From sequence record DRR378314_1079: a DNA stretch of 64,000 bases, one strand, 5' to 3'. Made by a program: the position numbers and the translations under genes. The number at the start of each line of letters is the position of its first letter. The first letter of the stretch is position 1. The notes under the pieces are model-generated. The model was not told the DNA's origin and did no database searches. It worked only from the letters and a program-made list of their open reading frames with translations. This document shows, one piece after another, positions 28,651 through 49,796 of the stretch.

Positions 28651-28665
28651 TAATGGATGGTATTA
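28651..28665. promoter_or_regulatory. Putative LysR box TAAT-N7-ATTA in the betC/regulator divergent region
   Basis: TAATGGATGGTATTA fits T-N11-A with dyad symmetry. Confidence 0.45.
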
Positions 28666-28674
28666 GGTAAGCTA

Positions 28675-31426: not shown

Positions 31427-32152
31427 TTATCCGCTCCGGCCGAATATGCGCTCCAGAAACCCCAGTTCCCGAACATCCGGCACCGGCAGCTCGTCGAGCT
31501 GCTCCATGGCGTCGTGCCAAAACACATCGGGGATGTCAAAGTGCTCGACCGATTTGCGTTTTTCCAGGGTGTAATGGTTATGCTCCCCCGACAGACCTGC
31601 CTTTAGTAGAGCGTTGGACCAGAGGTATATGACCGAACGTATGGTGCGAAGAAGTTTGGTATAGACCTCACGTCTCCGATAGATTGCCAGCTCAGCACTA
31701 ACGAATTCGGGGCGCCATCCATCGGAGAAATGCCCCAGATTAATTGCCTGCTCGACACTGAGGCCTATCTGTTTCTGGGCGGCTGCTGTGTCATCTTTGG
31801 TCAGTGGTTCTCGATAGCCCCCACCCTTCCTGCAGGCCAGGTAAATCTGTTCCAGTGACCTGACTCCCTCTGTTAGTTCACGGTGGCCAAGGTCAGCAAT
31901 TTGCCTTTCCTCAAGCGGAACCGGCGCCCACCCATCCTCAGGCGAATTTGCCTCCATATGCCCCGCCTGGCCAAGGCGGTAGGGTGGCGTTCTGTCTTTA
32001 TCGAGATAGCCACAGAACTCTTCACGTAGCCAGGTCGCCATTTTCCGATGGCGCAACATGGTCGCCAATGTAATGGCCGAGGGAATGATGTCGCAGAGCA
32101 GGTCGTTGGCGTCCTGGGTGCGTTCCAGAAGGCGGTTGACGGATGTGGACAT
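31427..32152 (-). CDS. Hypothetical protein with AbiTii-like N-terminal domain
   Basis: N-terminal pattern ...AITLATML...WLREEFCGY...PPYR resembles AbiTii. Confidence 0.55.
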   Translation of the reverse strand: MSTSVNRLLERTQDANDLLCDIIPSAITLATMLRHRKMATWLREEFCGYLDKDRTPPYRLGQAGHMEANSPEDGWAPVPLEERQIADLGHRELTEGVRSLEQIYLACRKGGGYREPLTKDDTAAAQKQIGLSVEQAINLGHFSDGWRPEFVSAELAIYRRREVYTKLLRTIRSVIYLWSNALLKAGLSGEHNHYTLEKRKSVEHFDIPDVFWHDAMEQLDELPVPDVRELGFLERIFGRSG

Positions 32153-32282
32153 AGTCTTTACTCCATTGAGGCCCTATGGGGTAGCCTCTTTCTTGTTGTT
32201 GGAAGGTTCGCGAAGCGGAGCTCAGGAGTGGTTTTTGGTTGAAAGGAAGGCAGTCATTGCGGACCACACAGATACAGGCTCC

Positions 32283-32324
32283 AAAAAGGGGCGGCGCAGC
32301 GGGGCCCGCATACGCCGCCCAAAA
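32283..32324 (-). terminator. Intrinsic terminator after the 2-HCT transporter
   Basis: GGGCGGCG...CGCCGCCC stem followed by a T-run on the minus strand. Confidence 0.6.
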
Positions 32325-32335
32325 GGACGCTGGAG

Positions 32336-33679
32336 TTAGAGAAGAACACCGAACAGGTAACCGGCAAGAAGCAGCACGATACCGCCACCTATACGGGAGG
32401 AGATCTGCGCGTAGGGGAACAGGTCCATCCGGCGGGAGGCGCCTAAAACTTCCAAGTCCCCGGAACCGCCACGGTTGGCCATGCAGAGCCCGGCGCTGAT
32501 CGCAGCTTCGATCGGGTAACAGCCAAAGAACCTTGCGACGAGCATCGTGCCAAGTACGGCGCCAAACACAACAAACAGACAAATCAGGACATTTGTGAAC
32601 TTCAGAGCGGCAAGCAGTTCATTAAGGTCGGTAATTAAGCCAACGGCGACCAGAACAAGAACCAGGAAGACCTTCATCCCCCATTCAGAAAGAACAATGA
32701 GAGAGCGCTTCTGGTCTGCTGAGAGAATATTCAGGAGGTTGACGGCCACAATCAGTATCACGACCCAGGCAAATAAATGAACCATCGGCACCAGTGAGTA
32801 CAGTAGAAAACACAGGAGAAGAACCGCCAGCACGAAGAACAGGGCGCCATGGGTATTCAGCATACCTTTCGTATCAGTGTCTTCTTCAAACCTTGGGCTG
32901 TCATTGTTAACCCGAAGAAGTTTGCCATTGCCGGTTAGCGCCGGGAATCGATTGCCTAGCCTGTTGAGTCCGGAAGCGACGAGTATGGCCAGGATATTGG
33001 CCAGTGTGAGAACCGAGATGGCATAGCTGTAATAGTCTCCGTCATCCATGCCAGTAATATCATTGTAGATTTCGGCCATTGGTATGGCGCCGGCGCCGTT
33101 TCCGCCCCCCATGATCGGCAACACGTAATGCGTGATAATTCGTGCCGGCTCCACCCCAACCATCAAACCCATGGCAATACCAAGGGTGGCAGCTCCGACC
33201 AGTCCAGCCAGAATGATGGGGATATAGGCAAGCAGCGACCTTACAAGTACCTTTGGTGGTACCGAAAGAATGCTAGAGGCAATGATTGCGACAAGGAGAA
33301 AGTAGAGGAAACGGTTGTCCAGTACCGAACCTTGAAGGAAGTCCGCATCCTCTCGCGAAATGACTCCCCAGTGGACCAGCACAGCAGCGCCAAAAAAAGC
33401 CATGATCATTCCGCCGCCAATGTATTCCCTCCAGACGGGCAGTTTTTCACCGATCGCATACAGAATGAAGCCGATGGCCCACATAAATGCGAAAGCCCCG
33501 ATAATGCCCGTTTCCTGAAGCTGCCCCATCTTCCAGAACAAAATAATCAACACGGCCATTATGGAGAAGAACAGCACTGGTATCCCGGCAACCTCCAGTT
33601 GGAAGGCTCGTTTGATTTTGCTCTCCTGCTCATTGTTGTTCTGAGGCACGCTTTCTGCGGTAGTGCTATTTCTTGTCAT
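32336..33679 (-). CDS. 2-hydroxycarboxylate transporter family protein (CitS/MaeN-like)
   Basis: PIMGGGNGAGAIP, GLCMANRGGSGD..VL.A..RM.L, YAQISSRIGGG. Confidence 0.93.
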   Translation of the reverse strand: MTRNSTTAESVPQNNNEQESKIKRAFQLEVAGIPVLFFSIMAVLIILFWKMGQLQETGIIGAFAFMWAIGFILYAIGEKLPVWREYIGGGMIMAFFGAAVLVHWGVISREDADFLQGSVLDNRFLYFLLVAIIASSILSVPPKVLVRSLLAYIPIILAGLVGAATLGIAMGLMVGVEPARIITHYVLPIMGGGNGAGAIPMAEIYNDITGMDDGDYYSYAISVLTLANILAILVASGLNRLGNRFPALTGNGKLLRVNNDSPRFEEDTDTKGMLNTHGALFFVLAVLLLCFLLYSLVPMVHLFAWVVILIVAVNLLNILSADQKRSLIVLSEWGMKVFLVLVLVAVGLITDLNELLAALKFTNVLICLFVVFGAVLGTMLVARFFGCYPIEAAISAGLCMANRGGSGDLEVLGASRRMDLFPYAQISSRIGGGIVLLLAGYLFGVLL

Positions 33680-33780
33680 AATGTCTTCTCTGGTTTCAAT
33701 TCACATGCTTTTCCCTGCTCGTCTTCGCTCGCAGGTTCTGTCGCCAATGCGTGGTTAGGGGGACATTAAACTCTGTCTCG

Positions 33781-33823
33781 ATATAAGTAAATCTTGATTT
33801 AAATTGTCAATATTTACTTATAT
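33781..33823. promoter_or_regulatory. Inverted repeat with 17-bp arms, putative operator (core TTGA-N9-TCAA)
   Basis: ATATAAGTAAATCTTGA-tttaaattg-TCAATATTTACTTATAT; one mismatch between arms. Confidence 0.75.
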
Positions 33824-33887
33824 TCTGGCTGTTGTTGCATAAAAAAGGTTTCTTAATAAGGGGGCGCGAGTGGAGCAATGCTTTTGT

Positions 33888-34826
33888 TCAATGATGTAGA
33901 GCGTGCCTGATCAGTTCGGATTCGGTGGTCAGGATGTCACGAACGACCGGCGCAACTTCATTGAACCTGACTACGCCGTGAATGATGTTGGGAATGATCG
34001 AGGTGCTGACATCAACATTCGATGCGGACAACTTGGCACCCAGAAGGACATTCTCATCAAGCAGCGGGTCGAGGTCGCCAATGACCAATCGAGTTCTTGG
34101 TAACCCCCTTAAATCCGCATATATCGGTTGAGCTCGCCAGTCCCATTCATTGTTGGGAAGATAGTCGCTCCAATGCTGTTTCATAGACTCTGCTGACAAG
34201 CCAAATCCATTATAACCCCCCAGTCTTTCCCAGGATTCGGAAGAAGTGTCTTTGGAATAGACCCCGTAGAACAGCATAAGGTAACGGCAATGGGGGAGGC
34301 CGGTATCCCGTAGTGAAAGCGCCGCGCCCAGCGCCAGATTTGCACCCGCTGAATCCCCACCGATTGCGTATTCATCAATGTGCCATTTATCGGCGATGCC
34401 TCTCAAAAGGACATGCCTTATGACCGACACTACTTCGACAAATGCTGTGGGAAACTGGTTTTCCGGCGACAGTGCATAGTCTATTGATAGAATGCCAATG
34501 TTGCTCTCTCTGGCGAGCTGCCTGAGAGGAGCGTCCCATTCTTCCAGGGATCCATGACGGAAGCCCCCGCCGTGGCAGTAAAACATCAGTTTTACTTTCC
34601 TGTGACTATCGTCAGGCAGGTAAAGTTTCAGCCTTACTGATCGACCGTTAACCTGGAGGTCCAGGTAACGCTCAACCGGCAGGGGCACGCTGCCTTTTGA
34701 TGCCAGCTCCGTTATTCGTTTTAGATAGTCCCGGGTGGTTGGCGCATCGCTATTCTTTGGGGGGATAAGGTTGTTTTCCTTCAATTTGGATACGACACGT
34801 GCCAGGTCCTTGTGAATCGTATTCAT
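33888..34826 (-). CDS. Alpha/beta hydrolase of the HSL/Aes esterase family
   Basis: HGGGF, IDYALSPE, GDSAGANLA, DPLLDE, IHG; start moved to ATG 34826 because a terminator lies at 34860-34887. Confidence 0.9.
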   Translation of the reverse strand: MNTIHKDLARVVSKLKENNLIPPKNSDAPTTRDYLKRITELASKGSVPLPVERYLDLQVNGRSVRLKLYLPDDSHRKVKLMFYCHGGGFRHGSLEEWDAPLRQLARESNIGILSIDYALSPENQFPTAFVEVVSVIRHVLLRGIADKWHIDEYAIGGDSAGANLALGAALSLRDTGLPHCRYLMLFYGVYSKDTSSESWERLGGYNGFGLSAESMKQHWSDYLPNNEWDWRAQPIYADLRGLPRTRLVIGDLDPLLDENVLLGAKLSASNVDVSTSIIPNIIHGVVRFNEVAPVVRDILTTESELIRHALHH

Positions 34827-34859
34827 GGTTCCGGTCCAATTATGGTCATGATGGCGTTT

Positions 34860-34887
34860 AAAAAAATGGCGACCCTTAGGGTCGCCA
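34860..34887 (-). terminator. Intrinsic terminator after the OprD-family porin
   Basis: Minus strand TGGCGACCCT-a-AGGGTCGCCA followed by T7. Confidence 0.75.
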
Positions 34888-34935
34888 AGCAACTGCTGGG
34901 TCAACAAAGAAATAAAACAACAGACGGGATAGGGC

Positions 34936-36348
34936 TTAGAATGCGTAGTCCAGATACACCCGTGTTTCTTTACCTGTTACAACGTTTTCGGGTTGCGCTG
35001 AAACGAGCGCAACAAAATCTTCATTGATATCGTAATCGGTAAAAATAAGGCCTACTGAAAGCCCGGTGTAGTTGTGTTCATCAAAGCGGTAATAGATCCG
35101 GTATTCAGACTGGCGCTCGGTGATATCGCCGGTGTCACCCGTTAGTGGGTTCGTGGCATCGAACGAACCGCGTTTATAGGTGGCCAGCATCTGGAGGCCA
35201 TCCAGGGGGATGTCAAAGAGTTGATGATTCGAGAAACTGTATTCCACTGCCAACTGCCAGGCTTCCTCGCCGTCGTTGTTAAAGTCATTGCCGGCCCTGG
35301 TCCAGACATCGAGCCTGCCATCGGCGTTATCGGCATGGTCAAAATAGGCATAGCCTATCTGGCCATTGTCCAGTTCCGCCTCGGCTTTCGTCCATGAGGC
35401 CCCGAACCTCCAGTTATCCAGAAGGAGTCCCAAGTTTATGTTTGTCCAGTTCGCTGAGGATGTGTACCCGGCAAGTCCTTGGGCAACGTCCTGCGACCAG
35501 AGGTCACCGTTTTCCCGAAAATCATAGTATTGGGCATCAAGAAGAACGCCGCTGTTTTCCCCCAAGGGCGCCTTCAGCTCCAGGCCGTACTTGGTGTTGC
35601 GGTTAAAATCCTTGGAGACCCCTGTAGCGTAACTCAGTACAATGGCCTGAAGGTCATAGGTGAGGCCAATTGTGCTGACGTTATCGATAACGTCGCCGCT
35701 CAGGTTACGAAAGTGCTCGGTACGTCTGCGGTCGCGCGGAGATGCCCTGTCAATAAAGGCGGCATCCAGGCTGAGCTCGCCGGCCAATGGACCAACATCG
35801 AGCCCGGATTTCCCCATGTAGAGTTTGCTGCCACGGTAGCTTCCGGGAACCGCCCGAGTGTCCTTGGTCACTATTGTGCCAGCGTCAAATCTGCCCAGGC
35901 CGGCATCAAGGCCAACGTGCCAGTCGGCAGTGCGGTGCCGCAGTTTGACGTGGGCCTGCCCGATTTTCGCGAAGCCTTCGTTCCTGCCGTCTGAGTCGTC
36001 GAACAGGTCTCTGCTGTTTGTTTCGGAATGCACCTTGCCGACGCCGTAAAGCGATACCCTAACGCCAATAGCATCGCTCCAGTAGGGCGAGTCATAGTCA
36101 AGGACTGCGCCAATGGCGGTTCCTCCCAGGTCATTGCCGAACGAAAATCCTCCAAAGTTCTCTTCGATCAATTCGTTTTCAATTTCTGTGTCGATATCTA
36201 CCGCACGCAGGTAAAGATTGAGTTGGCCTTCATTGGTCGTACGATTGGCGGTATTCATATTTTCGCCAATTCTTGCTCCGTAGGAGGCGCCACTCGTGAT
36301 CATGAGTACAGAAGCGAGAGTCACTATTTTTGTATTAAAGGTTGTCAT
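34936..36348 (-). CDS. OprD/Occ-like outer-membrane porin
   Basis: Signal peptide, LDYDSPYW, DTRAVPGSYRG, DFNNDGEEAWQL..EYSF, terminal RVYLDYAF. Confidence 0.75.
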   Translation of the reverse strand: MTTFNTKIVTLASVLMITSGASYGARIGENMNTANRTTNEGQLNLYLRAVDIDTEIENELIEENFGGFSFGNDLGGTAIGAVLDYDSPYWSDAIGVRVSLYGVGKVHSETNSRDLFDDSDGRNEGFAKIGQAHVKLRHRTADWHVGLDAGLGRFDAGTIVTKDTRAVPGSYRGSKLYMGKSGLDVGPLAGELSLDAAFIDRASPRDRRRTEHFRNLSGDVIDNVSTIGLTYDLQAIVLSYATGVSKDFNRNTKYGLELKAPLGENSGVLLDAQYYDFRENGDLWSQDVAQGLAGYTSSANWTNINLGLLLDNWRFGASWTKAEAELDNGQIGYAYFDHADNADGRLDVWTRAGNDFNNDGEEAWQLAVEYSFSNHQLFDIPLDGLQMLATYKRGSFDATNPLTGDTGDITERQSEYRIYYRFDEHNYTGLSVGLIFTDYDINEDFVALVSAQPENVVTGKETRVYLDYAF

Positions 36349-36391
36349 GATTACTGTGCCTTATTGTTTTATGTTGAAGGTTTCTTTGTGG

Positions 36392-37684
36392 TCAAATTAT
36401 TGCGCCCGTAATTACGCCTCCAATGATGAATATGAACGACGACGATATGGCCCAGGGCAGTGCGAACCGTTGAAGGTCACCAACCTCAACTTTCAGCATT
36501 GAGCTGATAAGATAAATGGGCGCGATCAGGGGGCTAAGGGCATGAACGGGCATCCCCATTAGTGAAGCTCTGGCAATATTCATCGCGTCGATATTAAACT
36601 CGCTTCCAACGCCGCCCATTATTGGTACAACGCCAAAGAAGAAAGCATCGTTGGAAAGGATGAATGTCAGTGGCAGGCTGATGAAGGCAACAATCACACT
36701 GAAGTATTCGCCGGCCCCATCGGGAATGATGGCTACAAACTCTTCAGACAGTGCGGAAACCATTCCCGTACCATTGATGATTCCCGCGAAAACGCCGGCC
36801 CCGAGAATCAGGGTTGCTACCGTAAGAACGTTACCCGAGTGGGACATCAGTCTTTCTTTTTGGTCTGAAAGATTTGGATAATTAACGACCAGGGCGAGAG
36901 CTAGAGCACCAACCATAAGCGCGGGTAAGGGGGCAAAGCCCAACGCCATTGAGCCAAAGAGACCTATCGTTAAAGCGAGGTTAACCCAGAAAAGTTTTGG
37001 CCTTCTGGCAGGATTGGCATCCTGTTGGTATTCCAGTTCACCAATGTCTTTTGAAAGAGAGTTTGGATGGGTCCAGTTCAGCCTCTTTCTTTCCCGGAGG
37101 CCCAGCCAATACGCCACAAAGAATGCATAGACCACAGCAATCAGGATGGCCGGAATCAGCCCCAAAAACACTTCAGTGGCGTCCAGATTCAGTGCACTTG
37201 CGGCGCGCGCTGTGGGGCCACCCCAGGGCACAACATTTATGACCGTATTGGTCAGTAGTAGAAGAACTGCGATGATGCAGGGATTCATTCCGACTTTCAG
37301 ATAAAGCGGAAGCATAGCCGTTACGACAATCAGAACGGTACTTGTTCCGTCGCCGTCAAGAGAGGTTATAACGCCCAGAACGGCCGTATACATTGCAATT
37401 CGTAACGGGTCATCCCCAGACAAGCGGATGATTCTTTTTACTAGTGGATCGAATAGCCCCGCATCGTACATCAGAGCAAAGAAAAGGATGGCGAAGATTA
37501 GCATTATCGCAATGGGCGCCACCTCGACCATTCCTTCCATGATCATGCCGCCCAGTTCCCCACGACTCTCCGTCATGAGCCCAAAAAGTATGGGGATAAC
37601 AATCAGTGCTGTGAACGCTGATAATTTTCTCATCATGATGAGAACCATGAAGGTCACCACCATTCCGAACCCTATTAATGCCAT
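36392..37684 (-). CDS. CitMHS-family citrate:cation/H+ symporter
   Basis: FAILFF.LM.DAGLFDP, SLDGDG, N..PWGGPTARA, SNDAFFFGVVP, HALSPL; start ATG 37684. Confidence 0.92.
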   Translation of the reverse strand: MALIGFGMVVTFMVLIMMRKLSAFTALIVIPILFGLMTESRGELGGMIMEGMVEVAPIAIMLIFAILFFALMYDAGLFDPLVKRIIRLSGDDPLRIAMYTAVLGVITSLDGDGTSTVLIVVTAMLPLYLKVGMNPCIIAVLLLLTNTVINVVPWGGPTARAASALNLDATEVFLGLIPAILIAVVYAFFVAYWLGLRERKRLNWTHPNSLSKDIGELEYQQDANPARRPKLFWVNLALTIGLFGSMALGFAPLPALMVGALALALVVNYPNLSDQKERLMSHSGNVLTVATLILGAGVFAGIINGTGMVSALSEEFVAIIPDGAGEYFSVIVAFISLPLTFILSNDAFFFGVVPIMGGVGSEFNIDAMNIARASLMGMPVHALSPLIAPIYLISSMLKVEVGDLQRFALPWAISSSFIFIIGGVITGAII

Positions 37685-37772
37685 GCTTTGACCTTTTTTG
37701 TTGTGTATGTCAGTGACTGTCGAAAGGGGAGTGCCTTTCGAATGGAAGACAGTAATTCTCAATTTTTTAAAA

Positions 37773-37797
37773 GTAAAGATTGAATAAAAACGTCAAT
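37773..37797. promoter_or_regulatory. Putative operator GTAAAGATTGA-N9-TCAAT
   Basis: GTAAAGATTGA-ataaaaacg-TCAAT between CitMHS and the regulator; weaker copies at 37871-37889 and 37903-37927. Confidence 0.7.
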
Positions 37798-37948
37798 GTG
37801 TATTAAATAAGTTTGAGGAAGAGAGGCGGGAATATTGAAATGGAAGCCGAAATGGCTATCTATTCAATGATTTGAGCGTATTTTTCATTGACGGGCTATG
37901 ACGTTAAGATTGACGCTTTAACTTTACCTGGGCGCGAGTGGATAGAAG

Positions 37949-39139
37949 ATGACCAGCAACGAAGGCCTTTATTTGACGGCGGAGGAAGCTGCAGAGCGGC
38001 TCGGAGTGAGTCAGGCTACTCTGTATGCCTATGTGAGCCGAAAGAACATCCGGTCCCTGCAGATAGAGGGCTCCAAGAAACGGCGATACTGGGCCGAGGA
38101 TATTGAGCGGATCCGCAAGAAGCCAAACACACCGAAGCGGCGCTCCGGCCGCTCTCAAACGCCGTCTGCGCAAAGCGCGATCACGCTTCTGACCGACACT
38201 GGCCTATATTACAGGGGCGTGGATGTGCTTGATCTGGTGGAGACGAAGTCCGTCGAGGAGGTTGCGGAGCTGCTTTGGCAGGTACCTGGCGCCTTTGACC
38301 ATGAGCTCCTACGCACGCCGGAATCCACTGACGAACTGCTGGACCTCTATCGCGGGTATCAGGCGTCTGAGAAAGCGATTGCCCTGTTCCCAACCCTCGA
38401 ACGGGCCAACCCAAGGGCGTTTGATCTTTCGCCAGAGGGCTACGCAAGAACCGGTTCCGGGGTCGTCAGGTGGTTTGCCGCATTGGTGGGAGGAAAGAAC
38501 CGACCCACCAACGAACCCTTGCATCAGTACCTTGTTGAAGCCTGTGGGGTCGACCCGGGCTACGGAGATCTTCTGCGACGCCTGATGATCCTGTCGCTGG
38601 ACCATGAGCTTGATCACTCCACCAATACCGTGAGGGCAGCGGCCATGACCGGCGTGACGCCCTTTTACGCCGCGATTACCGGCCTGGCTTCCTATCACGG
38701 TCGTCGTGTTGCCTACGGCCGGGCGCAGACGATCAACCAGTTGCTCAACGAAATCTGCACCAGTGCCGATCCGGTCCGGCCGTTGCTGAAGCATTTTGGG
38801 GAAAAGAACGCCATTCCCGGATTCGGTGACGCTGTGCCTGTCCGGGTCGATACCAGGGTGGATTCACTGCTGTCCTCCCTGGACAGTTGTTTTGGGGAGG
38901 ACCCGGAATTTCAGCGTCTCATGAAGGCTGCCCAGGTTGCGCAAGAGCTGGTCGGCCATCCCCCGGAGTTCCTCCTGTTAGCGACCTTTGTCGGCCGGAA
39001 ATTTGGCCTGGATGGGCAGGAGCTGGCGTTGATCGGCGTGGCTCGCATGGTCGGGTGGATAGCCCACGCCTGTGAGCAGTACAACACCCAGCCTTTCTCA
39101 CGGGAACGGGCTTTCTATACCGGGGAGCTGCCAGGCTGA
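37949..39139 (+). CDS. HTH (excisionase/MerR-like) fused to a degenerate citrate synthase domain; probable transcription factor
   Basis: YLTAEEAAERLGVSQATLYAYVSR; citrate synthase remnants SAITL...LYYRG, DHEL, IPGFG, ARMVGWIAH..EQ; catalytic His/His/Asp motifs altered. Confidence 0.85.
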   Translation: MTSNEGLYLTAEEAAERLGVSQATLYAYVSRKNIRSLQIEGSKKRRYWAEDIERIRKKPNTPKRRSGRSQTPSAQSAITLLTDTGLYYRGVDVLDLVETKSVEEVAELLWQVPGAFDHELLRTPESTDELLDLYRGYQASEKAIALFPTLERANPRAFDLSPEGYARTGSGVVRWFAALVGGKNRPTNEPLHQYLVEACGVDPGYGDLLRRLMILSLDHELDHSTNTVRAAAMTGVTPFYAAITGLASYHGRRVAYGRAQTINQLLNEICTSADPVRPLLKHFGEKNAIPGFGDAVPVRVDTRVDSLLSSLDSCFGEDPEFQRLMKAAQVAQELVGHPPEFLLLATFVGRKFGLDGQELALIGVARMVGWIAHACEQYNTQPFSRERAFYTGELPG

Positions 39140-39266
39140 AATTGCTGAAGCCCAACCCGCCCGGGATTGGGCTTCGACCTCTTACCGTGCCCGCCTCGGG
39201 CGCTTGATTTCCCCTTCCTCAACTTCCTTCAGGTCTTACCGCTCCGTTCGGGGCAAGTCGTAATTA

Positions 39267-39291
39267 GTACACATTGATAAAATATATCCAC
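39267..39291. promoter_or_regulatory. Putative operator GTACACATTGA-N9-TCCAC
   Basis: Variant of the island palindrome ~60 bp upstream of the AtuA-like gene. Confidence 0.6.
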
Positions 39292-39351
39292 TTTTATTAA
39301 AAATACAAACAATTATCATGGTTGCACGTTCATAGTGGAGGAAATACAAGA

Positions 39352-40770
39352 ATGACTGAAAGAGCGGATGACCGTGTAAAGGTGATCGTTCCCTGCGGTT
39401 CGTTGGGGGCGGGTGTGCGCGAAGAGGAGCTTGAGTTCGGTCTGGCGCGGGGCGCACAGGCAATCGCGACTGATGCGGGCTCTACGGATAGTGGCGCTGC
39501 CTATCTTGCCCTTGGCAAATCGAAGAACAATCGGGGAGCGGTCAAGCGGGATATGACGCTGCTGATGAAGGCACAGGTTCGCCATGGAATCCCGATTATT
39601 GTGGGCACCAGTGGCCAGGCCGGTGGCGATCTCAACCTCAACTGGACGCGAGACATCGTCCTGGAAATCGCGGAAGAGCTGGGAGTGTCTCCCAGGATCA
39701 CGCTTATCTACAGTGAACAGGACAAAGCCAGGGTGAAAGGCCTGAATGCAGAAGGCCGCATCCGACCGCTGCCGCCGCTTGGCGCGTTGGAAGACAGTAC
39801 GATCGATTCTTGTGATCACATCGTGGCGGCCATGGGGGTGGAACCGTTCCTGGCAGCTCTCGAAGCCGGGGCGGAAATAATCCTGGCAGGAAGGGCAACG
39901 GATACCGCCGTGCTTGCCTCTTACCCCATCTGGAAGGGAATGCCGTGGGGGCCCTCCTGGCATGCCGGGAAAATCGGTGAATGCGGTGTGCAGTGTTCCG
40001 CGAACCCGACACTCGGCTCCGGGATTCTGCTGACCGTGGATGCGGAGGGCTTTCAGGTGGAGCCGTTAAGCGAGAACAATCGCTGTACACGCCATAGTGT
40101 CTCCGCCCACATGCTCTACGAGAATACGGATCCCTTCTATTTGATTGAGCCCGGCGGAATCCTGAATGTGTCCGACGCACGCTACCTGCAGATCAATGAG
40201 CGGACGGTGCGCGTCGTCAATTCACGCTGGGACCCGATGCCCTACACGTTGAAGCTGGAAGGGGCCGGCGGTGGCCTGTATCAGACGCTGATGATGGTCG
40301 GCATCCAGGACCCGGATGTTCTCAATGACATTGACGGTTTTCATGATCGCTTATTGGCAGCCCTTTACGAGCGCACGCGTAAGTGTATTCCGCCCGAGGA
40401 GCTTGGGGAGTTCCATATTTCCCTGCGTATGTACGGGTGGAATGCTGTGAGCGGTGTTGCCCCTTCGAAGGGAACATCGCCGCCTCCTGAAATCGGCGTT
40501 CTGTTTGTCGCAACTGCCGAGACGCAGGACCTCGCGAACACCATCGCCCATGCGTGCAATCCCTATTTCTTCCACTACCCGAATGTCATGGATAAGGAGT
40601 TGCCATCCTACGGTTTCCCGTTCTCGCCCGCGGACATACCCCGGGGGCAGGTCTATGAATTCAAGCTCAACCATGTCGTCGAGCTTGAGGACCCCATGGA
40701 GCTCGTGCGAACGCATTGGATTAATTTTCAGGACGCAGTCTTTTCAGATAAGGAGGTTAACAATGCCTAA
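39352..40770 (+). CDS. Acyclic terpene utilization AtuA-like (DUF1446) protein
   Basis: P.GSLGAG, DAGSTDSG..YL..G, ILAGRATDTA, WHAGKIGECG, HMLYENTDPF...PGG; RBS GGAGG. Confidence 0.8.
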   Translation: MTERADDRVKVIVPCGSLGAGVREEELEFGLARGAQAIATDAGSTDSGAAYLALGKSKNNRGAVKRDMTLLMKAQVRHGIPIIVGTSGQAGGDLNLNWTRDIVLEIAEELGVSPRITLIYSEQDKARVKGLNAEGRIRPLPPLGALEDSTIDSCDHIVAAMGVEPFLAALEAGAEIILAGRATDTAVLASYPIWKGMPWGPSWHAGKIGECGVQCSANPTLGSGILLTVDAEGFQVEPLSENNRCTRHSVSAHMLYENTDPFYLIEPGGILNVSDARYLQINERTVRVVNSRWDPMPYTLKLEGAGGGLYQTLMMVGIQDPDVLNDIDGFHDRLLAALYERTRKCIPPEELGEFHISLRMYGWNAVSGVAPSKGTSPPPEIGVLFVATAETQDLANTIAHACNPYFFHYPNVMDKELPSYGFPFSPADIPRGQVYEFKLNHVVELEDPMELVRTHWINFQDAVFSDKEVNNA

Positions 40771-41071
40771 GCTACGGGATGTCTGTCGGCACGTCCGCTC
40801 CAAGCAAGCGGGGCCTTTCTGGATCACCTACGACATATTTTTTGACGGGCGTGAAAACTTTGACCGTTACCACGACAGCCCCTCATTGGCGCCGGAACAG
40901 TTTGCAAGGATCTATGGCGCTGATGCCTCCCTGGTAAAGCGTGTTTCGGTTCCCGACCTTGAGATGGTGAAGGTTTCCCACCCGCGACCGATGCCGCAGG
41001 GCGGAATGGTCGAACGCGATATGCATGCCGGCCAGCAGTACGTTCGGCTGCTTGATGTTGCAATGGAGTAA
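40763..41071 (+). CDS. DUF4387-family small protein
   Basis: 102 aa, VRSKQAGPFWITYDIFF and ERDMHAGQQY; RBS AAGGAGG; overlaps the AtuA-like stop codon. Confidence 0.82.
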   Translation: MPKLRDVCRHVRSKQAGPFWITYDIFFDGRENFDRYHDSPSLAPEQFARIYGADASLVKRVSVPDLEMVKVSHPRPMPQGGMVERDMHAGQQYVRLLDVAME

Positions 41072-41134: not shown

Positions 41135-42511
41135 TTGACTGATATCAATCTGGCTCACCGGCTCGCGGAATACGCCGGTAACTTCGCTACCTCAGGTTTA
41201 CCCGAGGAGGTTGTTCGCTGTGCCAAAAGGCGTTTCCTGGACAGTTTGGCATGCACCCTCGGGGCGTATGGAACCAGGCCGGTGGAAGCGGCAATCGCGC
41301 TGGCCGCTACAGTGCCGGTGCCGGCGTCGGGTGTGTTTGGCACCACCTTGAGGACAAGCCCCGAACTGGCGGCCTTTGCCAACGGTACGATGGTGCGCGT
41401 TCTGGATTACAACGACGGTTACATGGGGCTCGAACCTGGGCACCCGAGCGACAACATTCCTGCATGTCTCGCTCTTGCTGAAGCGGAGGGTGCATCGGGT
41501 AGGGAGCTCATAGAGGCTGTGGTATTGGCCTATGAGGTGCAAATCAGGCTCCAGGATGCCGCCAGCCTGAACAGGCGTGGTTGGGACCATGTGAATTACA
41601 TCAACGTATCCGTCGCTGTAGCCGCTGCGCGACTGTTGAAACTGAATGTGTCGCAGACGGAGCAGGCGATCAATATAGCGCTTGGCGGGCACCTGGCCTT
41701 GCGGCAGGTCCGCTCCGGGGCGCTGTCGGACTGGAAAGGCTGCTCCGCCGCGAACGCGGCGCGCAATGCCGTATTTTCTGCCTTACTGGCACGTCAAGGA
41801 ATGACCGGGCCGGCTCCCATCTTCGAGGGGAGTATGGGGTTCTTCGCGCAGGTTTCCGGTGAGTTTGATCTCGACACGGCCACCTTCGCGAATTTCCATA
41901 ATGGTGACTATGCAATCCTGCGCTCGCTCACCAAAACATTCCCTACCAATGGCGAACTGCACACCGCGGTTTGGGCAGCTATCGAGTTGGGCCTTCAGAT
42001 CACCGACCTAGACACGGTTGCAGCCATTCATATTGAGACATCGGAATTCAACAAGCGGGTGTTAGCGGACACCCCTGAGAAATGGCGGCCTCAAACCCGG
42101 GAGACGGCAGACCATAGCCTGCCTTACAACGTGGCCAGAGCACTGCTGGATCACGATATCGGTCTTGACTCCTACACCCCGGGAAAAATCGCCGATCCGA
42201 CCGTCATTGCTTTGATGGACAAGACGACTGTCGATGAGGACGACGACCTGACTGGTCTCTTCCCCGGGCATCTGGCAAACAGGGTAACCATTCGACTCAC
42301 CACCGGGGAAACGCTCGTCAGTGAAAAAATCACCGGCCCCGGCTCCGTCGAAACGCCCATGACAGATAGTGACTTCGAACGGAAGTTTCGCCGCATGGCC
42401 GCTCCCCACATTGATCACTTGGCTCAGGAGGATGTGCTGGCGTTCGTGGCCAATCTGGAGCTACAAACCGACTTCGCGTCTTTGTTCGCAGGCATGGCTG
42501 CGAAAAACTGA
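41135..42511 (+). CDS. MmgE/PrpD family protein (2-methylcitrate dehydratase-like)
   Basis: AFANG.MVR.LDYND, GHPSDNI, GWDH, R.G.LSDWKG, RETADHSLPY. Confidence 0.9.
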   Translation: MTDINLAHRLAEYAGNFATSGLPEEVVRCAKRRFLDSLACTLGAYGTRPVEAAIALAATVPVPASGVFGTTLRTSPELAAFANGTMVRVLDYNDGYMGLEPGHPSDNIPACLALAEAEGASGRELIEAVVLAYEVQIRLQDAASLNRRGWDHVNYINVSVAVAAARLLKLNVSQTEQAINIALGGHLALRQVRSGALSDWKGCSAANAARNAVFSALLARQGMTGPAPIFEGSMGFFAQVSGEFDLDTATFANFHNGDYAILRSLTKTFPTNGELHTAVWAAIELGLQITDLDTVAAIHIETSEFNKRVLADTPEKWRPQTRETADHSLPYNVARALLDHDIGLDSYTPGKIADPTVIALMDKTTVDEDDDLTGLFPGHLANRVTIRLTTGETLVSEKITGPGSVETPMTDSDFERKFRRMAAPHIDHLAQEDVLAFVANLELQTDFASLFAGMAAKN

Positions 42512-42524: not shown

Positions 42525-43820
42525 ATGCCGACTTTTGCACGCCTCTATCACCAATTCGGGGTTCCCCTGGCGGTTCTGATGGTGGGAATCATGACTGCCT
42601 ATATGGCGCTTCCGCAAAAGGCTGTCGCCGGTAGCCAGCTTCCTGTCGGGCCCGAGGCCGGAGATAGGAAGTTGTCGCCTTTCTATCGCTGGTCTACGTC
42701 CTTGCCAGGGGTGCCCGGTACGCTGTTGAAAAAAGAGCCGTTGTCCCTTCAGGACACCATGGACGCCGCAGGCAAGGCATTCCGGCTCTTGCATACCTCA
42801 ACGGATGCCCGTTGGCGCTCCGGGCAAGTGCCGGTCAGCGGTACATTGTTCATTCCGAAAGGACGCCCTCCTGAGGGCGGCTGGCCGCTCGTGGCCTGGG
42901 GGCACGGCACACTTGGCATTGCAGATGTCTGTGCGCCCTCCTGGACCGGGTTTCGCGCGCGGGACGCAATGTACATGAATCGCTGGCTCAACGCCGGATT
43001 CGCAGTCGTCGCAACGGATTACCAGGGGCTGGGCGGGCACGGCCCCCATCCTTACCTTTACTGGCAGGCGGAAGGTCGCTCTGTTCTGGATTCGGCCCGG
43101 GCGGCTCTGGCCGCCAGCGAAGGGCTGGTTTCAAACCAAGTAATGCTGGCAGGGCAATCCCAGGGGGCTGGAGCGGCTTTGGGCGCAGCAATCCTGTCGG
43201 AATCCTATGCACCTGACCTCCATGTTCTCGGTGTGGTCTCCACCGGCATTAACAGCACCTTTCCGGAGGGCCCGGTTTCACTCCCTGTCCGGAACTCCCC
43301 CAATATGTTCCTGAGTTTCGCGTCGGGCGGGTTAAAAGACGACGGTGCGCGTATTGAAGAAATTGTCAACGCCAAGGGCAGGCAGGTGCTCGACATGGCA
43401 CGCAGCGCCTGTACCGCGGAGATTGGAAAGCTGGCCCATGAACTGGGCATCCGGGAACTGGCCCAGGCGTTCACCGTCTCGCTGGAAGAGCTGCAGGAGA
43501 TGCGTATTCCGGTCACGGATATGCCTATGGCCTCGGTGGACACGCCAATCCTGATTGGCACTGGCCTGGCCGACGCCACGATTGTACCAATGCGACAGTT
43601 TGCGGCGGTATCCGCGCTGTGTGCCGCCGGCAACAAGGTCACCTGGCACCGTTACGAAGGTTTGGGCCACGACGGTGCAATGCATGGCTCGTTCGATGCA
43701 TCCCTTGCCTTTGCCCGTGCCATGCTGGCAGGCGCGGACGTAGGCTCCAACTGCCCTGAGATCGCCCCGCCAGGGCCTCCGGGTGAGTTGAAGGACGGCA
43801 TTCCCTTTAACGATGACTAG
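42525..43820 (+). CDS. Exported lipase/esterase (secretory lipase-like)
   Basis: Signal peptide, GGWPLVAWGHGT.G...CAPS, ATDYQGLG, GQSQG, D in GLADA, GHDG. Confidence 0.85.
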   Translation: MPTFARLYHQFGVPLAVLMVGIMTAYMALPQKAVAGSQLPVGPEAGDRKLSPFYRWSTSLPGVPGTLLKKEPLSLQDTMDAAGKAFRLLHTSTDARWRSGQVPVSGTLFIPKGRPPEGGWPLVAWGHGTLGIADVCAPSWTGFRARDAMYMNRWLNAGFAVVATDYQGLGGHGPHPYLYWQAEGRSVLDSARAALAASEGLVSNQVMLAGQSQGAGAALGAAILSESYAPDLHVLGVVSTGINSTFPEGPVSLPVRNSPNMFLSFASGGLKDDGARIEEIVNAKGRQVLDMARSACTAEIGKLAHELGIRELAQAFTVSLEELQEMRIPVTDMPMASVDTPILIGTGLADATIVPMRQFAAVSALCAAGNKVTWHRYEGLGHDGAMHGSFDASLAFARAMLAGADVGSNCPEIAPPGPPGELKDGIPFNDD

Positions 43821-43835: not shown

Positions 43836-45275
43836 ATGGGAAACGGTAAGACACTTTACGACAAGCACATTGATTCGCACACCGTATGCAAGCTGGATGA
43901 CGATGGGCATGTGCTCCTGTACATCGACCGCCAGGTATTGAACGAGTACACAAGCCCGCAGGCATTCACTGGCTTGCGGGAGAAGAAACGGACGGTGAGA
44001 ATGCCGGAGGCTGCGTTGGGGGTTGTCGATCATGTAAACCCGACATCACCGAACCGTATCCCGGCCATGTCCGACCCAGGCGGGGCGCGTCAGGTGTCCT
44101 ACTTTGGTGAGAACTGCCGGGATTTCGGCATAGAACTGTTCGGAGTAATGGACCGCCGTCAGGGGATCGAGCATGTCGTCGCCCCGGAGCAGGGTTTCAT
44201 CCTGCCGGGAATGGTGGTGGCCGCCGGCGACAGCCACACCACAACCTATGGCGCGCTTGGCGCCTTTGGTTTCGGTATTGGCACATCGGAAATCGAACAC
44301 CTTCTTGCAACCCAGACACTGGTGTACAAGCGCCTCAAGACCATGAGGGTACACGTTAAGGGCGAGTTGCCAGCGGGGGTGTCGTCGAAGGATATCATTA
44401 TGGGGCTCATCCGGCGTATTGGCGCCTCTGGTGCAACCGGGTACGCCATCGAATTCGCCGGCCCCGGTATAGAAGGGTTAAGCGTCGAGGCCCGAATGAC
44501 CATCTGCAATATGGCGGTTGAAGCGGGTGCGCGGGGGGCGTTTATGGCCCCCGACCAGAAAGTCTACGAGTATCTGGCCGGGCGACCGCGAGCTCCCAGG
44601 GGGGCGATGTTCGAGAAAGCGATGTCCTGCTGGGAAACCCTATACAGTGATCCGGAAGCGGAATTTGATGTTGATATCACCCTCGACAGCAGGGACCTGG
44701 CTCCAATGGTGACCTGGGGGACCAGCCCAGATCAGGCCGTCTTTATTGATGAGTCCGTTCCTGACCCCGAGGCACAATCCGACCCTGAACGCCGACGCGA
44801 CATGGAAAGGGCCCTGGCCTATATGGACCTGAAAGCGGGGCTGCCCATGACTGAGGTCAGGATTAGCCACGCTTTTATAGGCTCCTGCACAAACGCCCGA
44901 ATTGAGGACCTGCGCGCAGCCGCGTCGGTGGTAAGGAACCGACGCGTGGCAGAGGGGGTACGGGCAATGATTGTCCCCGGTTCCACAGCGGTTCGTGACG
45001 TGGCGGAAGAAGAGGGATTGGCGGAGATATTCAGGGCGGCGGGATTCGAGTGGCGCCAGTCCGGTTGTTCCATGTGCTTGGCGATGAATGATGACGTGCT
45101 GGCTCCTGGTGACCGCTGTGCATCCAGTACGAACCGCAATTTCGAGGGCCGACAGGGCGCCGGTGCACGCACCCATTTGATGAGCCCGGCCATGGTCGCC
45201 GCCGCGGCAATCACCGGCCACCTCACGGATGTCCGTTACCTTTCCGATAACAATACCATTGATGGAGGTCATTGA
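43836..45275 (+). CDS. leuC: 3-isopropylmalate dehydratase-like large subunit (aconitase family)
   Basis: TSPQAF, GIEHV, GDSHTTT, CNMAVE, [4Fe-4S] Cys in GSCTN and GCSMCLAMN, STNRNFEGRQG; no adjacent leuB, so probably not for leucine synthesis. Confidence 0.9.
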   Translation: MGNGKTLYDKHIDSHTVCKLDDDGHVLLYIDRQVLNEYTSPQAFTGLREKKRTVRMPEAALGVVDHVNPTSPNRIPAMSDPGGARQVSYFGENCRDFGIELFGVMDRRQGIEHVVAPEQGFILPGMVVAAGDSHTTTYGALGAFGFGIGTSEIEHLLATQTLVYKRLKTMRVHVKGELPAGVSSKDIIMGLIRRIGASGATGYAIEFAGPGIEGLSVEARMTICNMAVEAGARGAFMAPDQKVYEYLAGRPRAPRGAMFEKAMSCWETLYSDPEAEFDVDITLDSRDLAPMVTWGTSPDQAVFIDESVPDPEAQSDPERRRDMERALAYMDLKAGLPMTEVRISHAFIGSCTNARIEDLRAAASVVRNRRVAEGVRAMIVPGSTAVRDVAEEEGLAEIFRAAGFEWRQSGCSMCLAMNDDVLAPGDRCASSTNRNFEGRQGAGARTHLMSPAMVAAAAITGHLTDVRYLSDNNTIDGGH

Positions 45276-45886
45276 GTATGGAGCCTTTTATCTCCGTGAC
45301 CGGTGTTGCCGCACCCATGCTGGCGGCAAACATTGATACCGATGTCATCATGCCCAAGCAGTTCCTGAAAGGAATTGACCGAGCAGGCCTTGATCGAGGT
45401 GTGTTCCATGACTTGCGTTTTAACCGGGACGGGAGTGAAAACCCGGAATTCGTGTTGAATCGTCCCGATTGGCAGGGCGCGCGCTTCCTTGTCACCGGTC
45501 CGAATTTCGGGTGTGGGTCCAGTAGGGAGCATGCTGTCTGGGGGCTTCAACAATTGGGAATTCGTGGCTTGATCGGCACCACCTTTGCTGGAATCTTCGA
45601 CGACAACTGCCAGAGAAACGGAATCCTTACCATCTGTCTTGACCCGGTGTCTCACAGGATCCTGGCGGATATCATCTCGAGCCCCGGTAACAATTTGATA
45701 ACGATTGATCTAGAGGGACAGGTCGTAAACACAGAAGTGGCCGGACCTATAAAATTTTGTATCGAGCCCCTCCGGCGTGAATCTCTTATGCGGGGGTTGG
45801 ACGCCATTGCGCGAACCTTGGGGAAAGAGTCCCTGATAGAGCAATTCGAGGATAGTCATTTTGCCGATAAGCCTTGGCTTAGGTAA
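45272..45886 (+). CDS. leuD: 3-isopropylmalate dehydratase-like small subunit
   Basis: NIDTDVI.PKQFLK, NFGCGSSREHAVW, FAGIF..NC..NG. Confidence 0.9.
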   Translation: MSMEPFISVTGVAAPMLAANIDTDVIMPKQFLKGIDRAGLDRGVFHDLRFNRDGSENPEFVLNRPDWQGARFLVTGPNFGCGSSREHAVWGLQQLGIRGLIGTTFAGIFDDNCQRNGILTICLDPVSHRILADIISSPGNNLITIDLEGQVVNTEVAGPIKFCIEPLRRESLMRGLDAIARTLGKESLIEQFEDSHFADKPWLR

Positions 45887-45953: not shown

Positions 45954-46943
45954 CTAGAACTTGTACGACACACCAACCCCGACGAATGCCCCGTTTTCAT
46001 CAAAGAAAGTAATGGTCGAATCTGTCTCGCTATAGCCGGCCAGGGAAATGAAAGACCAGTTTTCCTGGCCAAACATGCCGCGATATTCATAGGAGAGGTT
46101 GGCTTTGTACGCCAAGCTATCCTGTTTTTCTCCGAATATAGGGTTCGGATCCTTGAATCCGGTATCCGACAGCCGGAAGGAGAGCCCTATACTGGACCTG
46201 TCAAACTGTCGGCCGTAAGTGAGGCCGGCAGAGTATCTGGTAAATGACATTGCATCGCCGTCGGCACGGAATCTCTGCATATAAATTGCTGGTTCAAGGA
46301 ACGAGCGGCGGTCGATTGCAAACCTTTGCTTTGCGCTGAGGAAGTACCCCTCGCCGTTGCGGTCAAGGAGTTGTTGCGAACGGCTGTCCAGAAGGCCTTG
46401 CCCGGACAGCTCCTCGTCAACGTCCTCATAATAATAGCCGAGCGAAAAGTCGATTCGAGAATTCAGCAGGTTGTCATAATCAAGCAGGAACGCATTGCCT
46501 GTCACCTCGGTCTCTTCTCGATGTTGATCAACCAGGTAGGGGTTTTCCCAGGTTTCGTCATCTACAACGGTTGGCATTACAGAGAGTTCGATCGAAGAGT
46601 CTTCACCAAATCGCAGGCCGGCCCCCAGCTTAAGGGCCAAAGCACCTACCACAATGTCGTCCCGGGACGTTCCTGCAAATACGGAATATTTACTGTCGAT
46701 GCCAAAGTTATACCGTATCTGTCCGAGGGGCAGGATGAAGGACTTTGAGTCGGACTCCGCCTCGGAATCGAGAGGCGACGATTTTCGATCGTTCTCTGTG
46801 TTGAAGTTGCTCCGTTTCTGGTTAAGGCCTGAAATTATGGCCATTTCTCCCTCAAACGTTCCTTCGGCAAGGCCGGGCGCAGAGTGCCCGATGGATATGA
46901 TAATCCCCAAACACTTGGCGTTAATAAAGCGTTTCATGGTCAA
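45954..46943 (-). CDS. Outer-membrane beta-barrel protein (DUF2860-like)
   Basis: Signal peptide, alternating beta strands, WENPYL...R.ET, NPIFG, terminal VSYKF. Confidence 0.65.
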   Translation of the reverse strand: MTMKRFINAKCLGIIISIGHSAPGLAEGTFEGEMAIISGLNQKRSNFNTENDRKSSPLDSEAESDSKSFILPLGQIRYNFGIDSKYSVFAGTSRDDIVVGALALKLGAGLRFGEDSSIELSVMPTVVDDETWENPYLVDQHREETEVTGNAFLLDYDNLLNSRIDFSLGYYYEDVDEELSGQGLLDSRSQQLLDRNGEGYFLSAKQRFAIDRRSFLEPAIYMQRFRADGDAMSFTRYSAGLTYGRQFDRSSIGLSFRLSDTGFKDPNPIFGEKQDSLAYKANLSYEYRGMFGQENWSFISLAGYSETDSTITFFDENGAFVGVGVSYKF

Positions 46944-47090
46944 GTACGACTCCCTTGCTGGTCAAATCAGTAGCGAAAGTATGTGTTTTGAGACGGGAAT
47001 TATTCTGGCGGAATGTTCTTGCATTTGGGTCTCGCGGCGAGTGCCCTTAATCTCGCGCTGTTGGCTATACTAATCGGTCCAAGGATATCG

Positions 47091-47115
47091 GTAAACATTG
47101 ATATAAAGCGTCAAT
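47091..47115. promoter_or_regulatory. Putative operator GTAAACATTGA-N9-TCAAT
   Basis: GTAAACATTGA-tataaagcg-TCAAT between the divergent OMP and dehydrogenase genes. Confidence 0.7.
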
Positions 47116-47173
47116 ATATATGTTTTTTAAGTAAGCTGTTAGGATGGAACGGAAATGCTTAGGAGAGCCGTTC

Positions 47174-48424: not shown

Positions 48425-48542
48425 GCCGCACGCTCTCACTGCTGGTTTGCGAGGCTGAGGACCACCCGAACTGGTCGAGAACGACCGGGGCGGCAAAGGC
48501 GATCACCAGGGCCGCGACAAACGCTGAAATCATAACCTTCAC
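48417..48542 (-). CDS. 41-aa single-TM small protein of the fdh operon
   Basis: MKVMISAFVAALVIAFAAPVVLDQFGWSSASQTSSESVRLD; GTG overlaps the TGA of the gamma subunit; RBS GGGAGG. Confidence 0.65.
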   Translation of the reverse strand: MKVMISAFVAALVIAFAAPVVLDQFGWSSASQTSSESVRLD

Positions 48543-49711: not shown

Positions 49712-49759
49712 GAGAGCACTCCAGCGGAATGAACAAAAAGAATCCGTTGCCTCAATGAA

Positions 49760-49783: not shown

Positions 49784-49796
49784 ATATCAAGTGGGC

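Follow-up and report, generated by a model that had tools for sequence, protein, structure and literature searches.

What does a citrate synthase-like gene that opens with a DNA-binding domain do among genes for the transport and breakdown of carboxylates: make an enzyme, regulate its neighbors, or something else? The question is raised by P0001 (396 aa; 37949..39139, plus strand, ATG to TGA), a gene on a stretch of 64,000 nucleotides from sequence record DRR378314_1079, which is called the window throughout. A first-pass annotation, made from the letters alone, had taken the product for a citrate synthase pseudoenzyme fused to a helix-turn-helix (HTH) and hence for a metabolite-sensing transcription factor. 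Following the computational analysis described here, P0001 is probably a one-component transcription factor, the effector domain of which is a non-catalytic citrate synthase (CS) that still binds a carboxylate ligand, as judged from sequence comparison and structure prediction.

Fold and catalytic residues of P0001

The proposed fusion of an N-terminal HTH to a citrate synthase fold was borne out by the domain models, all features lying on the plus strand. A winged HTH of the HTH_17/MerR_1/excisionase type covers residues 8-54 (37970..38110), where the Pfam model HTH_17 scores 32.3 bits (E 1.2e-7, cut-off 27). MerR_1 reaches 23.6 bits on residues 10-56 (cut-off 21.6) and the excisionase-type NCBIfam model TIGR01764 reaches 32.9 bits (cut-off 28.8), so the likeness to excisionase and MerR domains noted earlier holds for three models above cut-off, while the PF00376 MerR model stayed at 18.6 bits, under its cut-off of 28.2. 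A flexible, basic and Ser/Pro-rich linker follows at about residues 58-69 (38120..38155), and the CS-fold domain occupies residues 70-385 (38156..39103), as delimited by Pfam (Citrate_synt, E 4.3e-31, 108.7 bits) and by alignments. With the DNA-binding and the CS-derived domain in one polypeptide, in both the Pfam matches and the structural model, P0001 has the composition of a one-component regulator.

The AlphaFold2 model, made with 27 relatives, reached a mean predicted local distance difference test score (pLDDT) of 85.6 and a predicted template modelling score (pTM) of 0.76. Its HTH follows a strand-helix-helix-wing-helix order over residues 8-57 (strands at 8-10, 36-38 and 45-48; helices at 11-18, 22-31 and 49-57), and beyond it the disordered basic linker (59-69, pLDDT below 50) leads into an all-helical body. 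The top Foldseek matches in the PDB were citrate or methylcitrate synthases without exception (1a59 with E 1.2e-10 and template modelling (TM) scores of 0.68/0.71), which agrees with the earlier impression that remnants of the fold persist. The PDB sequence search with P0001 likewise returned genuine citrate synthases only and no HTH-fused solved structure.

With such a fold, P0001 might be an active citrate or 2-methylcitrate synthase that merely carries an N-terminal HTH. Its relatives are named accordingly in databases ("citrate synthase" or "citrate/2-methylcitrate synthase"), the substrate-binding Arg and His residues are kept, and distant HTH-fused relatives retain the catalytic His/His/Asp set. 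In P0001 and throughout its clade, however, the three catalytic residues are replaced. The residues were mapped from three concordant alignments, namely to the GltA of the window, of a profile to PDB citrate synthases, and within a family alignment of 203 rows; the first two agree to within one residue. Relatives are cited below by their locus handles where needed (L001 and so on), and all locus-level analyses use the best 80 of at least 587 genome stretches that encode a P0001 relative, with one genome per species scanned. The first catalytic His (GPAHGGA, or GPxHGG) falls on V254 or A255 inside G251-RRVAYG-R258, and the second (GFGHRVY) on D294 in GFGDAVP, in a gapless alignment that is anchored by the invariant G291, F292 and D301-x-R303. 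The catalytic Asp (PNVDF) corresponds to L342 in PPEFL, a register that is anchored because RPSVDFA of the relative in L055 lines up with RPSFILP of that in L013. These are the replacements that had been read by eye at the outset, with YHGRRVAYG as the counterpart of GPAHGGA, and the DHE motif said to persist is indeed present as D218-H219-E220.

The loss extends well beyond this one protein. In the clade, 9 loci and 120 database proteins (P0001 counted among them, a 274-aa fragment removed) give 129 rows, none of which keeps the His/His/Asp set or has more than one of the three residues, and the position of the catalytic Asp is I, V, L, A or S in all 129. On this residue comparison, the pseudoenzyme claim stands. 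The scores are in line with it: P0001 remains under the cut-off of every NCBIfam citrate synthase model (top score 65.9 bits vs 594), and its 108.7 Pfam bits compare with 464.5 for the GltA of the window (1589-3088), which clears the NCBIfam citrate synthase equivalogs and already provides a genuine enzyme. Lacking the catalytic residues and scoring below the curated cut-offs, P0001 cannot count as a citrate synthase enzyme, and we regard an active synthase with an accessory HTH as highly improbable. With regard to GltA itself, its longest open reading frame (ORF) in the window encodes 499 aa with a 72-residue N-terminal extension without any match; since the family models begin at residue 74-88, the true start is probably an internal Met (MAKRT...).

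While the catalytic residues were lost, the substrate-binding ones were kept. Each of H219 (in DHE), R229, R303 (in DPR), R366 (in VAR) and R385 (in RPR, its first Arg) occurs in 202-203 of the 203 family rows, and the same five together with H373 and E376 in 129 of 129 clade rows. By analogy with the pig and E. coli citrate synthases, we take H219, R303, R366 and R385 to be contacts to oxaloacetate or citrate, with R385 presumably corresponding to the Arg that is given across the dimer interface. In addition, R258 is found in 127 of the 129 clade rows and position 253 is R or K in 124, so that the loop which once held the first catalytic His, G251-(R/Q)-R-x-x-x-G-R258, is now rich in Arg.

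These residues also bear on what the former active site is for. The CS fold could serve as a mere dimerization scaffold of a DNA-binding regulator that senses no small molecule; citrate synthases are obligate dimers, and the loss of catalytic residues would then reflect relaxed selection on the active site. Such a role does not demand the new, near-invariant R258 in the same loop region, and it sits poorly with four substrate-contact residues (H219, R303, R366 and R385) that are invariant across clade members of 43-97% identity, which makes the pure scaffold unlikely. Unlikely, too, is an acyl-CoA (or CoA plus an oxo-acid) as the ligand in place of a free hydroxy-polycarboxylate. The IPGFG loop, which presumably touches the adenine of coenzyme A (CoA) in citrate synthases, is kept with G291 and F292 invariant, and a family III CoA-transferase gene lies near the regulator in 19 distant loci. 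However, the Arg after the second catalytic His (GFGHR) is gone, being A295 in P0001 and Arg in none of the 129 clade rows, and the clade of the window is tied to genes for a CoA-independent lyase of the CmlAB type and for carboxylate transporters, not to a CoA-transferase.

Operator-like palindromes upstream of the family genes and in the window

The putative DNA-binding surface of the HTH is strongly constrained. Among 27 relatives that are 43-60% identical to P0001, T24, L25, Y26, A27, Y28, V29, R31, R35, R45, Y47 and W48 are invariant. Of these, T24-L-Y-A-Y-V29 and R31 belong to the recognition helix, and R45, Y47 and W48 to the wing. Because recognition helix and wing do not vary, a shared operator was sought in the 220 nt before the gene in 55 loci and in the window (n = 56). 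The hexamer AATCAA was found in 46 of these 56 regions, compared to 2.8 expected from random windows, and the motif underlying it is the palindrome TCAA-N2-TTGA, typically tgaTCAATCTTGAtta. With at most one mismatch, this palindrome occurs in 50 of the 56 regions, 11-175 nt (mostly 20-75 nt) ahead of the estimated start. The perfect form TCAANNTTGA lies within 220 nt upstream in 47 of the 55 loci, which belong to several phyla (3.9 sites per kb), whereas the rest of the same loci (996,599 nt) holds only 13 perfect sites (0.013 per kb), equivalent to an upstream density that is about 300-fold higher. Several of these 13 precede cmlA-like operons of the P0001 clade (L025 at 5312; L023 at 5556 and 5646). 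The relaxed form T[C/A]AA-N2-TT[G/T]A is present in 7 of 9 P0001-clade loci and always outside the matched genes; in L025, for example, a site immediately precedes the cmlA-like operon, and in L001 one lies in the stretch that separates the regulator from the cmlA-like gene.

A longer first guess, CGTCAA-N2-TTGACG, had 8 window sites at up to two mismatches (2.77 expected). It was dropped, as among the loci of the relatives it occurred upstream of the regulator at up to one mismatch only in L001 and L013; the shorter core was adopted after the k-mer enrichment.

Within the window, related sites lie at the promoters of the island. Ahead of P0001 itself, TTAAGATTGA (37904..37913; wider form CGTTAAGATTGACG, 37902-37915) differs from TCAA-N2-TTGA by one mismatch and lies 36 nt ahead of the ATG. 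On the other side of the same intergenic region, (G)TAAAGATTGA (37774..37783) is located 12 nt upstream of the annotated start of the CitMHS gene (37762, minus strand). Paired sites upstream of the 2-hydroxycarboxylate transporter (2HCT) gene (33784..33820) together form a larger palindrome from GTAAATCTTGA (33787-33797, plus strand) and GTAAATATTGA (33807-33817, minus strand). The cmlA-like operon is preceded by GTACACATTGA (39267..39277), in which TTGATA overlaps a possible -35 element, and the divergent promoter region between the DUF2860 and 2-hydroxyacid dehydrogenase genes carries GTAAACATTGA (47091..47101). These sites were scored with a position matrix whose 43 input sites all came from distant triad-retaining loci, with neither the window nor the P0001 clade among the sources. 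Five of the eight best window hits fell into the roughly 1 kb of intergenic DNA of the island, at 33784 and 33803 (2HCT; sites of 10.8 and 12.5 bits), 39264 (cmlA-like; 10.4 bits), 37770 (CitMHS; 10.0 bits) and 47088 (DUF2860/dehydrogenase; 8.4 bits), and the other three into coding sequence. The half-sites overlap -35-like hexamers as judged by eye, and no sigma-70-like promoter was called in 37600-39400. Taken together, the invariant TLYAYV-R helix, the palindrome upstream of the gene in 47 of 55 loci and the related sites at island promoters lend comparative support to the transcription factor that had been predicted. An exact copy of the operator-like GTAAAGATTGA was also seen at 36211-36221, inside the OprD-family porin gene and about 43 codons past its start, which could be chance or an internal site.

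Several observations weigh against a purely sensory, operator-binding P0001 and have to be set beside this evidence. With regard to catalysis, 108 of the 129 clade rows have an E or D two positions ahead of the lost Asp, and 12 carry a His where the second catalytic residue would be, so that some members might have kept a trace of chemistry. As its IPGFG loop is kept, P0001 might bind a nucleotide or CoA. With regard to the operator, 25 of the 80 loci are outside the count, having no full-length plus-strand ORF by the filter applied, and the relaxed-form scan of the nine clade loci found no site in L002 and L005. Every site of the window is imperfect, with one mismatch to the family palindrome, and the regulator's own site (37904) ranks below the top 25 of the matrix scan. 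At up to one mismatch, the window holds 29 sites in total compared to 20.85 expected, a number that 3 of 100 shuffles reach and that is not clearly above chance. Matrix hits of at least 8.39 bits number 8 in the window, whereas over 20 mononucleotide shuffles they averaged 1.35 and never exceeded 4, a control to be read with the caveat that AT-rich intergenic DNA favors an AT-rich motif. Exact TAAANNTTGA occurs 6 times in the window vs 0.79 expected, and 5 of these 6 lie in the island, but this motif and GTWMANNTTGA were chosen post hoc from the sites, so that their statistics are inflated. Finally, our literature search found no experimental report on the HTH-CS family.

The surrounding island and the wider family

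The gene neighborhood bears on what such a regulator might respond to. P0001 is transcribed divergently from the gene of a CitMHS-family citrate:proton symporter (36392..37762, minus strand; TIGR00784 with 460 bits vs a cut-off of 259.7), as had been noticed at first reading, with 186 bp between the two. Further along the minus strand lie genes for an OprD-family porin (34936-36348), an Abhydrolase_3 esterase (33888-34907) and a CitS-like 2HCT (32336..33679; under the CitS cut-off). A terminator-like hairpin on the plus strand 3' of the P0001 stop codon (39187..39203) suggests that the gene is probably its own transcription unit. Downstream on the plus strand follow an AtuA-family gene homologous to CmlA (39322..40770; PDB 9erq_A, E 8.9e-80), for which the ATG at 39352 is the likely start rather than the TTG at 39322, and a DUF4387 gene homologous to CmlB (40763..41071; PDB 9erq_B, E 2.4e-11). 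The two overlap by 8 nt. Genes of the MmgE/PrpD family (41135-42511), for a LIP-type hydrolase (42525-43820) and for LeuC-like (43836-45275) and LeuD-like (45272-45886) dehydratase subunits come next, all on the plus strand, and the island closes with a DUF2860 gene (45954-46943, minus strand) and a GhrB-like 2-hydroxyacid dehydrogenase gene (47144-48148, plus strand). Among the selected ORFs of at least 90 aa at 32.3-48.1 kb, no further DNA-binding Pfam domain was detected, which upholds the view of P0001 as the sole regulator of the island; beyond the island, the closest regulator gene is of the LysR type (28657-29598).

The pair, which Pfam labels only as AtuA and DUF4387, is homologous to both subunits of the structures 9erq/9evf, titled "Citramalate lyase, subunit A (cmlA)" and "subunit B (cmlB)". 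According to a preprint, Cml of Raoultella planticola splits citramalate directly into pyruvate and acetate (bioRxiv 10.64898/2026.01.16.699985), and an earlier article reported an unexplained DUF1446 gene beside genes of the methylaspartate pathway (PMC4682846). For the pair in the window the relation is one of homology to CmlAB, and substrate specificity may differ within the lyase family, as L001 and L016 hold two AtuA/DUF4387 pairs each. Judged by its gene content, in which two alpha/beta hydrolases are included, the island resembles a pathway for taking up and cleaving a di- or tricarboxylate that is branched or hydroxylated.

Base composition is not uniform along the island: G+C is lower at 32001-38000 (transporter, porin and hydrolase genes) and at 46001-48000 (DUF2860 and dehydrogenase genes), with 0.48-0.53 vs about 0.58 for the window, which hints at a foreign origin of those parts. 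An AbiTii-domain gene of the abortive-infection family (31427-32152) flanks the island. Both features would suit a mobile island with P0001 as its excisionase-like recombination directionality factor, as would the match of its HTH to TIGR01764 and the names Xis/xis of two relatives. Against this, the protein has 396 aa and a metabolic-enzyme domain, none of the 54 scanned window ORFs has an integrase domain, the window contains no tRNA gene, and across phyla the palindrome is found at the promoter of the regulator gene itself in a chromosomal, non-mobile setting. Based on its wrong size and the missing integrase and tRNA genes, P0001 is not functionally an excisionase, an idea to which we assign next to no probability, and the mobile-element reading of the island was rejected. 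Beyond the island, 48539-57664 holds a cluster that is unrelated to P0001, with genes for a molybdopterin oxidoreductase, a 4Fe-4S protein, cytochrome b, TusA, DUF3305, a large ferredoxin-like protein, MobA, MobB and MoeA.

HTH-CS proteins are widespread. Of 8000 proteins scored in a word-indexed search with P0001, 1835 matched at E<=1e-3. Among the matches listed, 120 proteins are 43-97% identical to P0001, mostly of about 395-410 aa (range 274-447), and nearly all have HTH_17 plus Citrate_synt; "citrate synthase", "citrate/2-methylcitrate synthase" and "xis" are the names under which they are filed. When only the N-terminal 120 residues were searched against 1.84 billion representatives, 507 clusters at 50% identity matched with E<=1e-10. 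Hosts of relatives include Alpha-, Beta- and Gammaproteobacteria, Acidobacteriota, Chloroflexota, an actinomycete and a Kapaibacterium metagenome-assembled genome. One protein, P0122 (792 aa), consists of two tandem HTH-plus-citrate-synthase units at twice the usual length and is either a natural tandem fusion or a gene-calling join.

Within this family, catalytic residues and identity to P0001 go together. The family alignment splits accordingly: at 30-37% identity, relatives still have Asn, His, His and Asp (NHHxD patterns), and at 38% or more all have lost them. Four triad-retaining examples have HTH_17 and score 176-211 bits with Citrate_synt, compared to 106-121 bits for the P0001-clade members L001, L004 and L025 and 108.7 for P0001. 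A quick maximum likelihood tree (IQ-TREE, LG+G4, with the Shimodaira-Hasegawa-like approximate likelihood ratio test (SH-aLRT) as the only support measure) was calculated from 104 rows, namely all locus rows, 20 of the 121 database proteins and, for rooting, the GltA of the window. It places all 73 HTH rows in one clade (SH-aLRT 99) and, as the sister of this clade, a group of non-HTH citrate synthase paralogs (29 rows, His/His/Glu). Rows without the triad come together in a single clade of 29 (support 100) nested among triad-retaining lineages, although the deep order is to be held loosely because of a long-branch warning (L072, L025/L004 and P0110/L013).

Neighborhoods differ along the same line. 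When the island proteins were compared with the 80 loci by tblastn, the nine loci with a regulator 37-58% identical to P0001 had AtuA plus DUF4387 in 8, CitMHS in 7, a PrpD-like gene in 5 and LeuCD-like genes in 3 cases, whereas neither AtuA plus DUF4387 nor CitMHS was detected in any of the other 71. In 30 of the latter (L006-L012, L015, L017, L019-L021, L024, L028, L034, L041, L043, L047, L060, L061, L063, L068-L071, L073, L074, L076, L077 and L079), a triad-retaining HTH-CS gene has a non-HTH citrate synthase paralog directly upstream of it and divergent to it, at positions of about 8.8-10.0 kb in most of these loci. The ORFs of paralog and regulator are 2-139 bp apart in 18 of 20 measured loci and overlap as called in the other two, and the palindrome sits in this short gap. 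In 28 of the 30 paralogs the catalytic Asp is changed to Glu and in one to Gly; the paralog of L076 keeps it. In a third neighborhood type, seen in 19 loci (L030-L033, L037-L040, L042, L044, L049, L052, L055, L057, L059, L062, L066, L075 and L080), the HTH-CS gene has a family III CoA-transferase gene nearby, which is mostly adjacent and divergent with a median gap of 85 bp.

The paralog arrangement suggests that the HTH-CS regulator may have arisen by duplication of its own target gene. A more far-reaching account, which we put forward tentatively and consider less probable than its negation, would join all of these observations. HTH-CS proteins would be old, phylum-spanning regulators, born by duplication of the enzyme gene that they control through an operator in the divergent gap to the non-HTH paralog. 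Members that keep the triad could be bifunctional enzyme-regulators that read oxaloacetate and acetyl-CoA via turnover, and the lineage of the window would have lost catalysis, grown an Arg-rich pocket and been rewired to a citramalate- or citrate-like acid and the CoA-independent CmlAB lyase pathway, which has come to light only recently.

Proposed mechanism and relation to known systems

Returning to the one-component transcription factor with a ligand-binding CS domain, its function in the window is most likely that of a dimeric, ligand-responsive regulator of a hydroxy-polycarboxylate catabolic island, to judge by its residues and gene context. P0001 would dimerize via the CS fold, and the two tethered HTHs of the dimer would bind the palindrome, which takes the form T[C/A]AA-N2-TTGA in the window. 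A 2-hydroxy-polycarboxylate resembling citrate or citramalate would then occupy the former active site and alter DNA binding. The first-pass annotation had named citrate, oxaloacetate or an acyl-CoA in general as ligands; as the AtuA pair is a CmlAB homolog, the best guess moves toward the citrate- and citramalate-like acids. The predicted regulon would include the gene itself, both carboxylate transporter genes, the cmlAB-like/prpD-like/leuCD-like operon and the DUF2860/dehydrogenase pair. A repressor that is released by the ligand is slightly favored over an activator, because the half-site TTGAT/TTGAC overlaps -35-like hexamers and many operators lie about 25-50 nt from the start codon.

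The label "citrate synthase" in hundreds of genomes, including Pseudomonas (P. aeruginosa among them), Bradyrhizobium, Paraburkholderia, Achromobacter and Bordetella, inflates counts of tricarboxylic acid cycle genes and hides a regulator. If the reading is correct, the one-component transcription factors gain a new family for which an operator is predicted, and its members form a natural series from enzyme to sensor, in which the catalytic triad is first kept and then lost. It would also help to work out how CmlAB-type lyase clusters are regulated and, from this, which substrate they serve physiologically, and a citrate- or citramalate-responsive switch could be used as a biosensor part. Should the joint account of duplication and bifunctionality be true as well, the path from enzyme via enzyme-regulator to pure sensor could be traced.

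Compared to citrate/2-methylcitrate synthase (PF00285; for example PDB 1a59, 6zu0 and 3o8j), P0001 has the same fold (Foldseek TM 0.6-0.7) and shares the His and Arg residues that bind the substrate carboxylates, but it adds the N-terminal HTH and linker, replaces His/His/Asp and scores far under the family cut-offs. Also close to it are the triad-retaining HTH-CS fusions (for example L031 of Paraburkholderia, L006 of Bradyrhizobium type and L072 of Nonomuraea), which have its architecture, recognition helix and palindrome and belong to the same HTH-CS clade. They differ in that they keep His/His/Asp, are only 30-37% identical to P0001 and adjoin a non-HTH paralog (30 loci) or a CoA-transferase gene (19 loci) instead of cmlAB-like genes. 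With the MerR family, P0001 shares a winged HTH that clears MerR_1 and a putative operator that is palindromic as well. However, its effector is unrelated and the long dimerization helix of MerR proteins is missing, the model showing a 9-residue helix (49-57) followed by the low-confidence linker (59-69), so that P0001 is not a MerR-family protein structurally.

One-component regulators with enzyme-derived effectors include MocR/GabR, with an aminotransferase fold, as well as PutA, BirA and NadR. The likeness to this class would be twofold, as P0001 is proposed to sense through the active site of a dimeric enzyme fold that is linked to its DNA-binding domain, and to regulate its own gene through a palindrome beside a divergent target gene. 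P0001 differs from these regulators in its CS effector fold and HTH_17/MerR-type HTH and is a member of none of the MocR/GabR, PutA and BirA families; we know of no described case of this pairing. A full-text literature search, with subscription journals and bioRxiv supplements outside its scope, returned no description of an HTH-citrate-synthase fusion as a regulator.

The nearest finds of this search concern Caulobacter, where a citrate synthase paralog with a regulatory role is on record. In the accessible part of the source, CitA of Caulobacter crescentus is described as a paralog with a catalysis-independent regulatory role in cell-cycle control, and, unlike for P0001, no DNA-binding domain is reported there (bioRxiv 10.1101/799742). 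The same part of that preprint states that Caulobacter citB and citC are adjacent and that CitC failed to complement an E. coli gltA mutant (bioRxiv 10.1101/799742). Compared by this description only, the citB/citC pair resembles the arrangement of a citrate synthase paralog beside an HTH-CS gene and may, by analogy, be an instance of paralog plus regulator.

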